From Octopus vulgaris (taxonomy: Eukaryota): DNA of 64,000 bases. Each line of letters starts with the position of its first letter. The stretch's first letter is position 1. Below the pieces are notes generated by a model, which saw only the letters and a program-made list of their open reading frames with translations, made no database searches and was not told the origin of the DNA. The stretch covers positions 73,222,001 to 73,286,000 of the forward strand of contig OX597823.1 in NCBI GenBank assembly GCA_951406725.2. The letters are read 5' to 3'. The translations under genes and the position numbers were made by a program. Shown piece by piece: positions 41,231 to 49,599 of this stretch.

Positions 41231-42413
41231 TCTCTTAGCAATTCATTTTCAAAAATATATATTATCCATTTTTGTTTACTCACCTATTGATTTAATTTCT
41301 AAAGTATTATTAGCGAGTTTTAAGTGTGGTTTTACGGAAAATACATTTCATGACGTTCCTGTAATTTTAGAAAATACAAACGTCACGTAATCATACTTTT
41401 TCTCTGTTACAAATCTTGATTACTTTTATCTACATAAAAATACAAATCATTAAAATAATGAGTTTTAGCTTAAGCACAAAGCTAGGAAGTGGGACAGTAG
41501 ATTAATATCGAGCACATTACTTGAGTGGTACTTGGTTTTATCGATTACGAAAGGATGACTGGGAAAGTCGACCTCGACAGAATAAAGATTTAGAACAGAA
41601 GAGGACGTAACTAAATACCACAAAGTAGTTTTTGGGTAATCTACTGATTCTGCCAATCTATTACCCTTACAAATTAGTAGAATGATAGAAAAGATCGATC
41701 GATCGACCTGAGATTTGTGTTTCACAATGCAGCAGTATTCAGAGAATATAAACTAAAATCGATTTTTTTTTCAATAAGTTGTCTCGATAAAGAATGTGCA
41801 CAAAAGTCATGTTTGTTGGAGCGAAATAATAAAATTTACCATTTCTAAGAAATCTGACCTTCAATAGATTTTAGAACAGACTTCCTTGCATAATTAAAAT
41901 ACTTAATACGATAATAAAATAAAATACAGTCAAGATTACATCAAACATAGACATGCATGTGCACATTCAACATATATATGTATATATACATATGTGTGTG
42001 TGTTCGTGTACGCTTCTGCGATTGCATGAGTTTGTGTGTGTGTGTGTGTGTATACGAACCTACGTATACATATATATATACAGGTAAGTATATATGTCTG
42101 AAGAGAAGTATATCTGTGCGTGTATGTAAGGCATTCTTCCACAAAGTTTTCGGCAGTCAAATTCTGAACTGATATCATAAAGGAATATACGTGGCGAAGT
42201 GGTCGTGGATGGGCAGCGAACTGCGTTGTGTCAAAGCTGACTTCTTAACTTCTAAGCTTTGTCTTAGCATTTGCACTTTTACACAGATAGGTACACGCAC
42301 ACATACTCGCACACACACACATATACACATAAGTATATCCATGGTGTGTACGTGTATATATAACTATCTATCTATCTATCTATCTATCTATCCATTCTAT
42401 CTATCTATATAAA

Positions 42414-42791
42414 ACATACAAATTAAGAGAAATGACCCGCAAATTGGATTCCTAATATGCTAAAGATAGACGTCAGATCTCCTTACCACGAAGAGTGTGT
42501 TCTCAAGAAAATTTCAGCAAACGCCAGAATGTCAAAATGAGCAAGACAAATGAAAATATACGAAATAAATACCGATTAACTACGTACGATGGTTTCGTTT
42601 GTTATTATTTACAAATGGTATGTAGTTAATCGTTTTTTATTTCGTATATTTTCATTTGTCTTCCTCATTTTCATATTCTGGCGTTTGCTGAAATTTTCTT
42701 GAGAACACACTTTTCGTTGTAAGGCGATTTGACGTCTATCTTTAGCATATTAGGAATCCACTTTGGAGGTCATTCCTCTTAATTTTTATGT
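42414..42791. repeat. Long inverted repeat (about 170-bp arms, about 30-bp loop)
   Basis: TGGATTCCTAATATGCTAAAGATAGACGTCA and GTGTGTTCTCAAGAAAATTTCAGCAAACGCCAGAAT have exact reverse complements in the right arm. Confidence 0.92.
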
Positions 42792-43039
42792 AATATAATT
42801 TTTCATCTTCGGATCTTCTAAATATGCTAAGCCACTGGCTTTAATTGATTAATATCAATTTCTACCCGCATTATTTAAGTTATATATATGTATATATATA
42901 TATATATATACATGTACGATGGGTAAATTGTCGCCAGCCAGAAATTTGGAAACAACATGCTGTACTGTTTGGCCTTCACGCCGGAAGATTCAGTACGAAT
43001 ATTTCAGCGTGTTTGAGTAGAGTGTTTAGGTGTCGATAT

Positions 43040-44662: not shown

Positions 44663-44676
44663 AGTTTATTAAATAT
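44663..44676 (+). repeat. 14-bp direct repeat AGTTTATTAAATAT, copy 1 of 4 (also 46331-46344, 48019-48032, 49436-49449); target-site-duplication-like
   Basis: Exact 14-mer at both outer ends and both internal junctions of the three-element array. The first three copies extend with GC. Confidence 0.92.
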
Positions 44677-46330
44677 GCAATGAAACAGGATTGTTGGGTT
44701 TTTGCTCTCTGTGAAGTTCGGTAGAGGGAAAAAGGAACAAAAAGTGAATGGTTGTTGTTGTGAAATTTTGAACATGGTTGATGCGGTTTCGCGTCTCGCT
44801 GGTTCTGCGCGTTGCACTTTTTCGGTTCGGGAGGCCGTTTTTCGGTCTGAGGCGACTGTGGAGGAGATGGAGGGGGGAATTTGCTCTGAGGTTTCGACGG
44901 AAGTGTCGACATCTGAGGGGGGGTTGGCGGTGAGGGGGATGGAGGGCACCTGCGCAGGTGTGGCGAGGAAGTCGACGGAGGGAGAGATGGACCTGGCTAG
45001 GTTGGCGGGCCTCCAGGAGTTTGTGAGGGAGGACGAGAGCGGTGAGGTTGAGCTGCTGCATCCGGTGGGGCGCGGAGACTGGTTCCATCGTGGAACCATT
45101 GAGTGTGAAGTATTTATGAATGGAGGTGGAAGGATGGAAGTGGTTGACATGGGGGCAGTTGAGGAGGCTCTCGGGCGGACGGGAGAGGAGGTTGTGTGCA
45201 TGACGGGGGGATTGCAATGCGGAGCCATAGCGGTGCAATTTGGAAGTGGGGGGGCAGCCAGGAATGTGGCAGCCAGGGTGGTGAGTGCAGAAAGGATTTA
45301 CTTGTTGCCCTCGTGTCTGAATGGGCGGACGGCCGGAGTTGGGGTGGAGGGAGTGCCTCCGCGCCTGGAGGGCGAATTGGTGGCGGCTGCGGTTGTGAGG
45401 GGAGGTGAGGATGAGGTGGACATCCTCCACGCCGTTGTGAGGTATGAAGGCGTGAGAGGTGCCACACTGGTTGTGAACATTCAAACGGAGGCGGATGTTG
45501 TAGAGAGGATTGCGGACGGCGTGAAAGCTGGAAATGTTATTGTGAGAGTGTGGGTGGAGGGTGGGGCGCCCAGGTGCTACAAGTGTGGCCAAAGGGGTCA
45601 CATAAGAGCCTACTGCCCTCCCCCACCAAAGGAAAAAGAAAAGGAAAGCGTTGAGGAAGCCTCAGGAGAGGAAGAAAATAAACAGAAACAAACAGAGAAG
45701 GAAACGACAGAAGAAGAGGAGATGCAACAAGAGTGGAAAGAAGGGGGAACAAAGAGAAAAAGAAGGAAAAAGAAAAACTGTGCGAAGCCCCAACCCACCC
45801 CGACACCACCCATACCCTTGGAGTCCCATCCTTCCCCTGCAAACAGTGATTCCACCCACTCCCCGCCTACAAGAAAAACAAAAACAGACACACAGAGCAA
45901 AGAAAGTCCCAAGACCCATTTTTTATGTGTTATACATGGGAAAGACATACAAAACGTTAAAAAACGGGTGTTAACCAAGTGGTACGAACACGAAGATTGT
46001 AGCTACACGGCTGTGGATAGTGATGATACGGGTATATTGGCGAGAAGGTTTGAGGAAGAGGGTGTGTGTTGGAAGTCAGTGGAAATGAAAGATGAATGGA
46101 TAGAGAGGGCTAAAAGAAAAACGAATGTTGTGATAGGTAAAAAAGGAATACTAATTGGAAATGGGTGAAGAAGGACAGATAAGTGATGCTGGCGGATGGG
46201 GCCGTCGGTATCACTCTCATATATCATTTTCATATTCCATTTTGCTCATATATATGTAATTGTGATGTTCTATGTCCCCAATGTTTGTAACGTCCCCTCT
46301 ATGTAGCCCCTAGTGGGTAATAAAGAAATC
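44677..46330 (+). mobile_element. ORF1-only non-LTR retroelement, unit 1 (A-to-G hypermutated copy)
   Basis: Leader, single gag-like ORF and about 160-bp 3' UTR ending in hairpin plus AATAAAGAAAT. No RT or endonuclease. Flanked by the 14-bp repeat. Confidence 0.85.
44774..46168 (+). CDS. L1/Tx1-type ORF1 (gag-like) protein with CCHC zinc knuckle, hyper-recoded variant
   Basis: Open frame from 44702; first in-frame ATG at 44774. CYKCGQRGHIRAYC is a CX2CX4HX4C knuckle, followed by a charged linker and basic KRKRRKKK. Confidence 0.7.
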   Translation: MVDAVSRLAGSARCTFSVREAVFRSEATVEEMEGGICSEVSTEVSTSEGGLAVRGMEGTCAGVARKSTEGEMDLARLAGLQEFVREDESGEVELLHPVGRGDWFHRGTIECEVFMNGGGRMEVVDMGAVEEALGRTGEEVVCMTGGLQCGAIAVQFGSGGAARNVAARVVSAERIYLLPSCLNGRTAGVGVEGVPPRLEGELVAAAVVRGGEDEVDILHAVVRYEGVRGATLVVNIQTEADVVERIADGVKAGNVIVRVWVEGGAPRCYKCGQRGHIRAYCPPPPKEKEKESVEEASGEEENKQKQTEKETTEEEEMQQEWKEGGTKRKRRKKKNCAKPQPTPTPPIPLESHPSPANSDSTHSPPTRKTKTDTQSKESPKTHFLCVIHGKDIQNVKKRVLTKWYEHEDCSYTAVDSDDTGILARRFEEEGVCWKSVEMKDEWIERAKRKTNVVIGKKGILIGNG

Positions 46331-46344
46331 AGTTTATTAAATAT

Positions 46345-48018
46345 GCAATGAAACAGGATTGTTGGGTTTTTGCTCTCTGTGAAATTCGGTAAAAAGAAAA
46401 AAGAACAAAAAGTGAATGGTTGTTGTTGTAAAATTTTGAACATAGTTGATGCGGTTTCGCGTCTCACTGGTTCTCTGCGCGTTACACTTTTTCGGTTCGG
46501 GAGGCCGTTTTTCGGCCGGAGGCGACTATGAGCCGCCTCCATCAAGCGGAGGAGATGGAAGGGAGAATTTACTCTGAAATTTCGACGGAAGTATCGACAT
46601 CTGAGGAGGAGTTGGTGGTGAAAAAGATGGAAGGCACCTACGCAGGTGTAACGAAGAAGTCAACGGAAAGAGAGATAGACCTGGCTAAGTTGGCGGGCCT
46701 CCAGGAGTTTGTGAAAGAGGACGAGAACGGTGAAGTTGAGCTGCTGCATCCAGTAGGGCGCGGAGACTGGTTCCATCGTAGAACCATTAAATATAAAGTA
46801 TTTATGAATGGAGGTAGAAAGATGGAAGTAATTAACATGGAAGCAATTGAAGAGGCTCTCAAGCAGACAGGAGAGGAAATTGTGTACATGACAAAAGGAT
46901 TACAATACGGAACCATAACGGTGCAATTTAAAAGTGAAAAAGCAGCCAGGAATGTAGCAGCCAAGGTGGTGAGTACAGAAAAGATTTACTTGTTACCCTC
47001 GTATCTGAATAGGCGGACAACCAGAATTAGGGTGGAGGGAATAGCTCCACACCTAGAGGGCGAATTAATAACGGCTGCGGTTATAAAAGGAAATGAAGAT
47101 AAAGTGGACATCCTCCACGCCATTATGAAGTATGAAGGCGTGAGAGGTGCCACACTAGTTATGAACATTCAAACGGAGGCGGATGTTATAGAGAGGATTA
47201 CGGACAGCATAAAAACTGGAAATATTATTATGAGAGTGTGGGTGGAGGGTAGGGCGCCCAGGTGCTACAAGTGTGGCCAAAGGGGTCACATAAGAGCCTA
47301 CTGCCCTCCCCCACCAAAGGAAAAAGAAAAGGAAAGCGTTGAGGAAGCCTCAGGAGAGGAAGAAAATAAACAGAAACAAACAGAGAAGGAAACGACAGAA
47401 GAAGAGGAGATGCAACAAGAGTGGAAAGAAGGGGGAACAAAGAGAAAAAGAAGGAAAAAGAAAAACTGTGCGAAGCCCCAACCCACCCCGACACCACCCA
47501 TACCCTTGGAGTCCCATCCTTCCCCTGCAAACAGTGATTCCACCCACTCCCCGCCTACAAGAAAAACAAAAACAGACACACAGAGCAAAGAAAGTCCCAA
47601 GACCCATTTTTTATGTGTTATACATGGGAAAGACATACAAAACGTTAAAAAACGGGTGTTAACCAAGTGGTACGAACACGAAGATTGTAGCTACACGGCT
47701 GTGGATAGTGATGATACGGGTATATTGGCGAGAAGGTTTGAGGAAGAGGGTGTGTGTTGGAAGTCAGTGGAAATGAAAGATGAATGGATAGAGTGGGCTA
47801 AAAGAAAAACGAATATTGTGATAGGAAAAAAAGGAATACTTATTGGAAATGGGTGAAGAAGGACAGATAAGTGATGCTGGCGGATGGGGCCGTCGGTATC
47901 ACTCTCATATATCATTTTCATATTCCATTTTGCTCATATATATGTAATTGTGATGTTCTATGTCCCCAATGTTTGTAACGTCCCCTCTATGTAGCCCCTA
48001 GTGGGTAATAAAGAAATC
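46345..48018 (+). mobile_element. ORF1-only non-LTR retroelement, unit 2 (unedited-state copy)
   Basis: Same 5' start and identical 3' UTR as unit 1; 20 bp longer (an 18-bp and a 2-bp indel). Confidence 0.88.
46528..47856 (+). CDS. L1/Tx1-type ORF1 (gag-like) protein, 442 aa, CCHC zinc knuckle
   Basis: Intact ATG-to-TGA frame. N-terminal TYA motif, RTTRIRVEGI segment and VEGRAPRCYKCGQRGHIRAYC are typical of Tx1/L1-group ORF1. Confidence 0.85.
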   Translation: MSRLHQAEEMEGRIYSEISTEVSTSEEELVVKKMEGTYAGVTKKSTEREIDLAKLAGLQEFVKEDENGEVELLHPVGRGDWFHRRTIKYKVFMNGGRKMEVINMEAIEEALKQTGEEIVYMTKGLQYGTITVQFKSEKAARNVAAKVVSTEKIYLLPSYLNRRTTRIRVEGIAPHLEGELITAAVIKGNEDKVDILHAIMKYEGVRGATLVMNIQTEADVIERITDSIKTGNIIMRVWVEGRAPRCYKCGQRGHIRAYCPPPPKEKEKESVEEASGEEENKQKQTEKETTEEEEMQQEWKEGGTKRKRRKKKNCAKPQPTPTPPIPLESHPSPANSDSTHSPPTRKTKTDTQSKESPKTHFLCVIHGKDIQNVKKRVLTKWYEHEDCSYTAVDSDDTGILARRFEEEGVCWKSVEMKDEWIEWAKRKTNIVIGKKGILIGNG

Positions 48019-48032
48019 AGTTTATTAAATAT

Positions 48033-49435
48033 GCTCAATGGATGTAAGGTTTGGCAACGAAGAAGATGCCATGAACCACTCAACAGAGCTGTTACGGACA
48101 ACGAAATGGATACTACTTCCGACGTAGTGTGGCAAACGCGTTCCCAGAGTGAGAGTTGGAAGAGTGCCCCCCGAAATCGAGAAAGACTGGCTGGTAGCAG
48201 CCATAATACACAATATGAAGGGTGGGGTAGAGATCCTCAAGATGGCGATGACCCAAAAGGTCAATTAGTGGGGATATGGCCTCGAAGTGACCATGCAGGT
48301 ATCGTTGGAAGACTTGCATAGTATAACGGAGTTAATAATACTCCCGGAAGACACCAGACTTCGAATAACAGTAGAAGGAAAACCACCAACATGCCTCCTA
48401 TTTTTATTTATTTTATTTTATCTAGTTTCAGCTCACGAGCTGTGGCCATGCTGGGGCACCGCCGGCAAAAAAGGGTACATGACAGCAAGATGTCCCGAGA
48501 AGGAAAGCGAAGAGGAGAAGAAAAGTGAAGAAAAAAATACCGAAGAGTTATTACCAATAAAAGAGACAGATAGATTGGAGGAATCATTCACAGTAGTAAA
48601 CACGAGGAAGAGTACGGAACGGGTGAATTCTCCCCCAGACAGTAAAAAAAAGGCTAATGGAGAATGTGGCGGAAGAATAGAGAAATAGGTGTGACGCCCC
48701 ACCAGAAGCAGTAGTGAAAGAAGGTACGCAGGAAAAAAACAGCATCACAACAGGGAGAAAAAGAAAGCGTCCTTAAAATTGGTTATGTTTCTGCACGCCC
48801 GAACAGATAATGACAGGAGCCGAAGCAAGCAGAAGTGAAAAGGAAGAGATATAAATGGCATTTGGTCACGCATTCCAAAAGTAAAGAAATAGAGAAAACA
48901 ATTGTAAAATATAAATCGAAGTAAAGCTGCCGCCAGAAAAATACCCGGAATACACTAAAAGAATAGTCATAGATAAAGAGAGCTTTTTGAAATTGAGAGA
49001 GATGTATTGACATTTCATAGACTCGCTGGGGGTTGAAGTCGAGTTTGGCGAGCTCCCACCGGTCGTGGAATTAGAAGATTTGAAACCCTTTATGAACTTT
49101 TAAAAATAAGTAAAGTTTGTACTTCATATAAAGAAAAAAATACGAGGAAAATAGACTGTAAAAAAGTTTAAAGTAAAAAGAAACGATACAAAAAAAAACC
49201 AAAAGACTAAGAAAAAGAACAAGCGAAAAAGGAAAAAAAAGAAAAATGACTGTTAGAACGATTAATTGTAAAAAAGATATCACGGTTTCGTCTCGAAGCG
49301 GGACCGAGAAAACCGTCTCATATACTTTATAATTTAATTCATTGTAATTCATTCTTTCATATGTTTTTTTATTCCCGCATGTTTGTGTATGTCCCCTCTG
49401 TATTCAGGCATTGTGCCTATAATAAAGAAATAACC
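48033..49435 (+). mobile_element. ORF1-only non-LTR retroelement, unit 3: older, diverged, 5'-truncated and pseudogenised
   Basis: Reads KWILLPT*CGKRVPRVRVGRVPPEIEKDWLVAAII...VEIL...LRITVEGKPPTC[insert]GKKGYMTARCP, collinear with unit 2. Ends AGGCATTGTGCCTATAATAAAGAAAT. Confidence 0.8.
48401..48463 (-). mobile_element. Short SINE 3' tail inserted antisense into the zinc knuckle of unit 3
   Basis: Reverse complement GGCGGTGCCCCAGCATGGCCACAGCTCGTGAGCTGAAACTAGATAAAATAAAA resembles the family B tail at 12092-12150. Confidence 0.8.
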
Positions 49436-49599
49436 AGTTTATTAAATATCGATGCACGAAACTCTCGGCCCCTGAGTTACTCTGTAACTTCTATGAATTA
49501 TTAATTTTAAAAAAGCATATATAAGAATTAAGTAGTATGAATGCATGTGAGGCAAGTTCAGTTTAAAATGTACAAATAATATATGAGTGTTAATGTTGC

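Follow-up and report, generated by a model that had tools for sequence, protein, structure and literature searches.

A-to-G clusters in octopus LINE units point to RNA edits copied repeatedly into inherited DNA

RNA edits have most likely been copied into the heritable DNA of Octopus vulgaris repeatedly, at least 15 independent times within one group of retroelements. A-to-I editing is normally taken to end with the RNA, and to our knowledge the octopus group has the highest editing known among animals; what we describe here would be such edits recorded again and again in inherited DNA. The case from which the analysis started lies in a 64,000-nt stretch (contig OX597823.1 of assembly GCA_951406725.2, positions 73,222,001 to 73,286,000; hereafter the window). 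That an ADAR-edited RNA was copied into germline DNA at this locus, by insertion or by cDNA conversion taken jointly, is very probable, and in the form that we prefer, a fresh insertion of an ADAR hyper-edited LINE RNA whose inosines were read as G by the reverse transcriptase, it is still probable.

The window contains two head-to-tail units of ~1.67 kb each (Table 1). In a global alignment of both units, unit 1 had G where unit 2 had A at 117 sites between 44716 and 45563 (counterpart 46384-47251), none were reversed, and the same zone had five other substitutions and two indels (2 nt and 18 nt). The initial annotation had counted about 118 one-directional sites, four other substitutions and two small indels, and exactly these numbers are obtained, by eye, when the 18-nt gap is shifted by 3 nt, which places GTG of unit 1 against ATG of unit 2. 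No site with A in unit 1 and G in unit 2 was present inside the globally aligned units, and one was located in the unalignable flank (44653). The cluster is dense and has sharp edges, with 117 of the 283 A's in the ~850 nt zone changed (41%) and none past 45563. Downstream of the zone, 0 of 211 A's lacking a 5' G were changed to G, except for the single extra G/A site at 46127 (47815 in unit 2), where unit 2 is the changed one (102 of 104 other copies have G). The remaining 770 nt hold four differences, all of them rare alleles of unit 2; these are located within 48 nt (47794-47841) and are perhaps a small conversion patch. The changed sites are distributed about evenly over the codon positions (45, 31, and 41), and over 235 codons the two units differ by 67 non-synonymous and 24 synonymous changes, with no stops. 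Both in-frame TGG codons are intact, and the protein motifs reported at the outset (TYA, RIRV, and VEGR in unit 2; TCA, GVGV, and VEGG in unit 1; RVRV and VEGK in unit 3) were all found as described.

Table 1. Features of the unit array, with positions counted from the first letter of the window
Feature	Position	Strand	Remarks
Target-site duplication, copy 1	44663..44678	+	16 nt; stretch shared with the unit 1/2 junction reaches ~44715, just before the first edit
Unit 1	44679..46330	+	ORF1-only non-autonomous LINE unit, family F0; probably the newest insertion of the array
Unit 1 open frame	44684..46168	+	494 aa between stops; GTG in place of the likely start ATG
Hyper-edited zone	44716..45563	+	116-117 A>G, ADAR neighbour preference
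CCHC zinc knuckle of ORF1	45572..45619	+	Pfam zf-CCHC, just below cut-off; 9 nt past the end of the edited zone
Target-site duplication, copy 2	46331..46346	+	
Unit 2	46347..48018	+	Unedited F0 unit; open frame 46450-47856, ATG 46528; 3' tail hairpin and AATAAA
Target-site duplication, copy 3	48019..48034	+	
Unit 3	48035..49435	+	5'-truncated, decayed, more distant ORF1-type; probably the oldest insertion
Target-site duplication, copy 4	49436..49449	+	14 nt; followed by unique flank at single-copy depth

The direction of the changes was determined from other copies of the element. A 22-mer of the unit had 126 exact matches in the 2.80-Gb genome, and 183 unit records were taken from 48 genomic regions. 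The set used for polarising consisted of 104 unflagged copies of family F0 (110 minus five flagged and one distant copy) and includes a subfamily that is ~88% identical. Among these copies A was the majority base at 116 of the 117 sites, and the 12057 aligned cells comprised 11499 A's and 438 G's; A is the ancestral state at the edited sites. The one exception, site 45028, was G in 103 of the 104 copies and is therefore a G>A change of unit 2 and not an edit, so the initial reading of all ~118 sites as A-to-G changes of unit 1 stands with this site removed. The family consensus, on which the proposed direction had been said to hinge, carries A.

ADARs favour the 5' neighbours of the edited base in the order U>A>C>G. 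In unit 1, 42 of 51 A's following a T were changed, 56 of 103 following an A, 14 of 41 following a C, and 5 of 88 following a G (Fisher p = 2e-18). The triplet TAG was changed in 12 of 13 cases and GAA in 2 of 37, while runs of A after a G were changed at the first A in 5 of 89 cases, at the second in 19 of 37 and at later ones in 14 of 19; A's located before a G were changed in 42 of 83 cases (p = 0.047). When all clusters found in the genome (see below) were pooled, 606 of 2100 A's were changed, and the changed fraction by 5' base was 0.51 for T, 0.43 for A, 0.21 for C, and 0.05 for G (p = 3e-70), while by 3' base it was 0.39 before G vs. 0.21 before A. What had been noticed by eye, i.e., only about five changed A's with a 5' G and heavily changed TA sites, is thus borne out by the counts, and the depletion of 5' G is confirmed by formal context analysis both in unit 1 and in the pooled data. 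Such a depletion is documented for metazoan hyper-editing, octopus included, in PMC5625713, which for invertebrate hyper-editing (again with octopus) gives A rather than G as the preferred downstream base; in our data the 3' G is favoured, as in canonical ADAR2, and normalisation may differ between the two analyses.

The G-rich copy was also searched for in sequencing reads from genomic DNA, and three DNA runs (two samples, two studies) contained 54-65% of the words sampled from the edited zone. No RNA run was among the listed runs containing them, which carries no information on expression. A contig from run X1 covering 45109-45283 (33 edits) had 0 mismatches and a depth of 16.9, compared with 15.4-17.7 in the flank, and two contigs from run X2 covering 45113-45283 and 45454-45591 (11 edits) had 0 mismatches at depths of 52.6 and 50.9, compared with 55.7-65.8 in the flank. 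These contigs show presence only, and the sample of X1 or X2 may be the assembly's own source. In run X7, a third sample with the same species label, 44920-45531 was without cover, and cover was low in run X4 (other species label), so that these two runs do not count as evidence. As exact short-read contigs at single-copy depth come from two samples of two studies, the G alleles are heritable DNA and not an assembly error, and the G-rich copy is real single-copy DNA common to at least two samples, in agreement with what the initial annotation had supposed.

In order to scan the element group for similar copies, a cluster was defined as at least 10 changes of one type with gaps of at most 100 nt and with other changes amounting to at most a quarter. 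The 203 scanned records comprised 165 units and 38 pieces, about eight of which overlap others; the scan excluded one reversed artefact as well as 17 records with a single member each, most of which are non-family or unique and one of which is an ORF2 piece. Sixteen records (15 distinct units) contained a cluster, in all cases of sense-strand A>G, while the other 11 substitution types, including T>C and G>A, gave 0 clusters in the same 203 records. The initially suggested search for sense-strand A-to-G clusters in other copies was thus productive. No cluster was present in four further units or in any of 19 ORF2 fragments of 2 kb each. The clusters hold 11-116 changes; five of them start within 40 nt of the 5' end of a full unit, and the others are located further in or in truncated units. 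The subfamily with the tail of unit 2 was sampled nearly completely (66 of 67 genomic matches covered) and has five edited copies. The nearest genomic match of unit 1 is 90% identical, and no second copy of its edit pattern is present in the genome. Compared with the edited copy on C2, unit 1 has 60 sites in common where context predicts 49, while 46 and 20 sites are private, and the edited F0 patterns that were compared are mutually distinct. A single edited master as the common source of the edited F0 copies was rejected, given overlaps near or modestly above the context expectation and many private sites, and GC-biased conversion was rejected as well, as there was no excess of T>C or of other weak-to-strong changes. 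In the C2 array (L105:6770-6790), the copy of the target duplication upstream of the edited first unit also carries A>G at TA, which may reflect leader RNA or chance.

The units are dispersed young copies without LTRs, with target duplications and an AATAAA/A-rich 3' end. A complete autonomous element was found at C1:108.56 Mb; its ORF1 is 33% identical to the unit protein (E = 1e-36), and its ORF2 (1132 aa) encodes an APE-type endonuclease, RVT_1, and zf-RVT, with human L1 ORF2p as the closest among solved structures. Copies of this LINE are 95-99% identical, and it has 24 of the last 25 nt in common with unit 2. ORF1-only units together with an intact ORF1 + ORF2 partner sharing the 3' end identify the units as non-autonomous LINEs, which would be mobilised in trans by this partner. 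The term retrocopy, used initially for unit 1, therefore holds in so far as a reverse-transcribed copy is supported, but the copy is a non-autonomous LINE unit and not a processed host gene. The units are tentatively labelled Tx1-like from a resemblance together with the repeated use of one target, and no named Tx1 element was among the 120 matches listed for homologues. The L1/Tx1 group of LINEs shares with our elements a zinc-knuckle ORF1, an ORF2 with APE, RT, and zf-RVT, a 3' end in common with non-autonomous partners, target duplications of 14-20 nt, and the reuse of one target, while the octopus passengers differ in having a full ORF1 without ORF2 and in forming mixed head-to-tail arrays of several subfamilies. 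A word-based protein search with ORF1 gave no match, an atlas comparison of ORF1 pointed to zf-CCHC and ZCCHC3-like clusters (0.89-0.93, a lead only), and the single-sequence structure model of ORF1 (pLDDT 42) was left out of the analysis. A search against Rfam returned only repeat-driven noise below the gathering scores and no ribozyme.

Within the array the target sequence occurs four times (44663, 46331, 48019, and 49436), with the duplicated length growing, and from these nested copies the units would have been inserted in the order 3, 2, 1, each at the left. Unit 1 has other family alleles at 44846, 44848, and 44928 and does not have the four rare 3' alleles of unit 2; as each of the two units carries family alleles that the other lacks, unit 1 is not a simple duplicate. 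Several further observations were made on the arrays. The conserved 3' tail contains a 14-bp G-U-rich hairpin (47871-47902 and 46183-46214; z = -4.2), a possible recognition element for the reverse transcriptase, and a short high-copy repeat (very high depth, loose ends) breaks unit 3 at the zinc knuckle (~48388-48463). Elsewhere in the genome, one site of a host repeat is the target both of the autonomous LINE and of ORF1-only units from at least five families (e.g., L068, L073, L080, L113, and L117), and mixed head-to-tail arrays reach up to ~19 units of several subfamilies with nested target duplications, resembling cassette arrays. A related autonomous LINE subfamily, 80% identical to the partner, occurs in tandem with ~5.3-kb spacing at C27:32.96-32.99 Mb and C30:10.44 Mb.

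Changes found only as A>G on the sense strand would be expected if the sense RNA was modified, whereas a process acting on DNA would be strand-symmetric or would hit the minus cDNA. The sequence of events that we propose would start with a sense transcript of the ORF1-only LINE that pairs, along the first ~850 nt, with a complementary RNA; within this part ADAR, probably ADAR2 as judged from the signature, would deaminate ~41% of the adenosines. The edited RNA, with its 3' half and tail unedited, would then be taken up in trans by the ORF2p of the partner LINE and reverse transcribed at a nick in the target site of the array, with inosine read as G, resulting in a germline insertion upstream of unit 2. 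That a hyper-edited RNA was reverse transcribed and inserted heritably, as the initial annotation had proposed, is supported by the direction, strand, and context of the changes as well as by the DNA contigs. Four loci with A_deamin exons are present in the genome (C1:137.35, C5:47.62, C6:132.22, and C30:5.58 Mb), and the one on C6 is ADAR2, with its deaminase exon matching human ADAR2 at E = 3e-79 and with intact HAE, PCGD, and SCSDK motifs (motif-level evidence); the homologue search for this ADAR2 named Octopus vulgaris. By eye, this ADAR2 has a serine in KIESGEG, a residue that is tied to the 3' G preference in PMC5625713.

The complementary strand of the presumed duplex is best guessed to be an antisense transcript, except for those F1 clusters that a fold-back may have supplied. 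No long inverted repeat of the unit was found in the window between 40 and 54 kb, and the edited zone itself folds with a longest helix of 9 bp (z = -2.6). All neighbours at the 90 genomic matches of the 5' 20-mer are on the same strand, none on the opposite one, and none of 70 loci has the 5' half on both strands. At C1:74.680-74.683 Mb (L062, L122), an antisense 3' half of F1 lies inside an F1 unit beside the sense half, forming a ~950-bp inverted repeat whose arms are themselves not hyper-edited; this fold-back could be the dsRNA source for some F1 clusters. Sense transcripts paired with antisense ones are described as an ADAR substrate in some metazoans (PMC9989829). A 183-nt inverted repeat in the window (42408-42797; 90% complementary, 24-nt loop) is unrelated to the units.

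Several observations count against the preferred reading: the searches above gave no duplex partner, the downstream preference differs from that in PMC5625713, human L1 RNA carried no edits in PMC5224506, none of the 19 ORF2 fragments had a cluster, and X1 or X2 may come from the assembly's own source. A further one is a patch at 45361-45444 that a single one-step insertion does not explain. The X1 contig covering 45301-45572 matches unit 1 at 10 and 11 flanking edits and at 11 of 19 inside this 84-nt patch, where eight edits are absent and three new A>G changes (AAA, CAT, and TAT) and one transversion are present. It looks as if it had been patched by another edited molecule, which would suit a scenario in which edited cDNA overwrote by gene conversion the 5' half of an unedited unit 1, itself a copy or a tandem duplicate. 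The junctions would look alike after a duplication between target copies, several clusters in family F1 are confined to short stretches (90-240 nt) inside the unit, and chimeric units are common. On the other hand, the unedited 3' half of unit 1 lacks the four rare alleles of unit 2, several edited units head their arrays or are flanked by target duplications of their own, and the X1 patch could come from contig chimerism, with no donor for it in the assembly. We therefore regard conversion as unlikely, although it is the best of the alternatives.

Deamination of adenines in DNA, either through a TadA/ADAT-like enzyme or through ADAR working on the plus DNA strand of a hybrid with RNA, would be a more distant explanation and a very improbable one. 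TadA disfavours AA, and A's following an A are heavily changed here (0.43-0.54). ADARs can edit the DNA of hybrids in vitro (work cited in PMC12925331) and a DNA-deaminating ADAT is reported from amphioxus (PMC10354150). However, the DNA in the hybrid of target-primed reverse transcription is the minus strand, which would leave sense T>C changes, and there were 0 such clusters; a saturation of 41% over 850 nt would also be hard to reach. That unit 1 is ancestral and unit 2 was hypermutated from G to A in an APOBEC-like manner has next to no probability left: a two-way alignment gives no direction and site 45028 is truly G>A in unit 2, but the polarisation with 104 copies (116 of 117 sites with A majority) refutes it, and the 203 records have 0 G>A clusters. 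An equally negligible chance is left for a sequencing or assembly artefact or for contamination of the assembly by an edited cDNA: trace data are known to contain systematic errors in the form of mismatch clusters (PMC2873906), but this explanation is largely refuted by the exact contigs at single-copy depth from two samples of two studies and by a bias that follows the element strand on both genomic strands in 15 units.

The A>G hypermutants of avian retroviruses reportedly came from infected cells. In Rous-associated virus as well as in avian leukosis virus (1994-95), A>G clusters comprising nearly half of the A's of a region were attributed to ADAR (PMC12925331), and as in the octopus units an ADAR-edited RNA was then reverse transcribed (same source). 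The avian cases concern exogenous LTR retroviruses, whereas those of octopus concern an endogenous non-LTR element in an invertebrate germline and are inherited and recurrent; the octopus clusters also extend up to 850 nt without an inverted repeat at the locus. The "DNA editing" of vertebrate LTR retrotransposons by APOBEC is similar in leaving a deaminase signature in germline copies, in clusters that arose in one step and were polarised with the family as reference, and differs in its opposite chemistry (G>A via the cDNA) and in acting on LTR elements. A screen for such editing describes invertebrates, its negative control, as devoid of it, and its filter required dominance of G>A and not of A>G (PMC4866542). 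Our clusters would thus represent the A>G counterpart of APOBEC retroelement editing, in a non-LTR element of an invertebrate, a setting in which previous screens had expected none. For young repeats, A-to-I hyper-editing is reported across metazoan transcriptomes, extreme in octopus (PMC5625713 and PMC9989829), and has in common with our data the young repeats, the clusters, and the depletion of 5' G, although it concerns RNA only, while here the changes are in genomic DNA. In human cells, ADAR1 restricts L1 without editing, with no edits reported in more than 2.5 kb of L1 RNA in PMC5224506; ADAR meets a LINE RNP there as it would here, but independently of editing. Full-text searches of mostly open-access papers gave no account of LINE copies in a germline genome that were edited by ADAR. 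ADAR-edited proviruses in culture and APOBEC-edited germline elements were thus known before, and what is new here is recurrent germline LINE copies of the ADAR type.

Such copies would keep single edited germline RNA molecules, and with them the specificity of the enzyme and the extent of the duplex in a rarely sampled tissue. They also make it testable whether ADAR editing shapes or disables retrotransposon lineages, as a 2016 review (PMC4982230) describes a role of ADAR editing in Alu subfamily evolution or mutational suppression as not yet determined. As for a possible role in defence against retroelements or in sudden sequence diversification, both suggested initially, the edited unit 1 was inserted, has an open frame, and has no second genomic copy of its pattern. 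In editome studies, G-rich copies in the genome can be mistaken for hyper-edited reads or can hide them.

Traces of lighter editing were looked for in the unflagged copies, where derived A>G alleles are depleted of a 5' G (4/117 vs. 33/277, p = 0.008), while neither the mirror control for T>C (p = 0.7) nor the control for G>A (p = 1.0) showed such a depletion. The A/G differences between subfamilies also avoid a 5' G (6 of 45, p = 0.009), and six to eight such A>G alleles are common to arrays on three chromosomes. As the per-site rate of A>G is not above that of T>C or C>T, this signal is suggestive only. Tentatively, and at somewhat short of even confidence, octopus ADAR could routinely introduce heritable mutations into an active LINE system, in which hyper-editing affects ~7% of the recent non-autonomous insertions sampled and retrotransposition passes on lighter edits, founding subfamilies; if true, RNA editing would feed genome evolution through a germline route from RNA to DNA. 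At C5:100.95-100.98 Mb (L109-L112), a four-unit higher-order repeat includes one unit with eight derived A>G changes, none of them after G, and this repeated unit was possibly lightly edited and then amplified in tandem.
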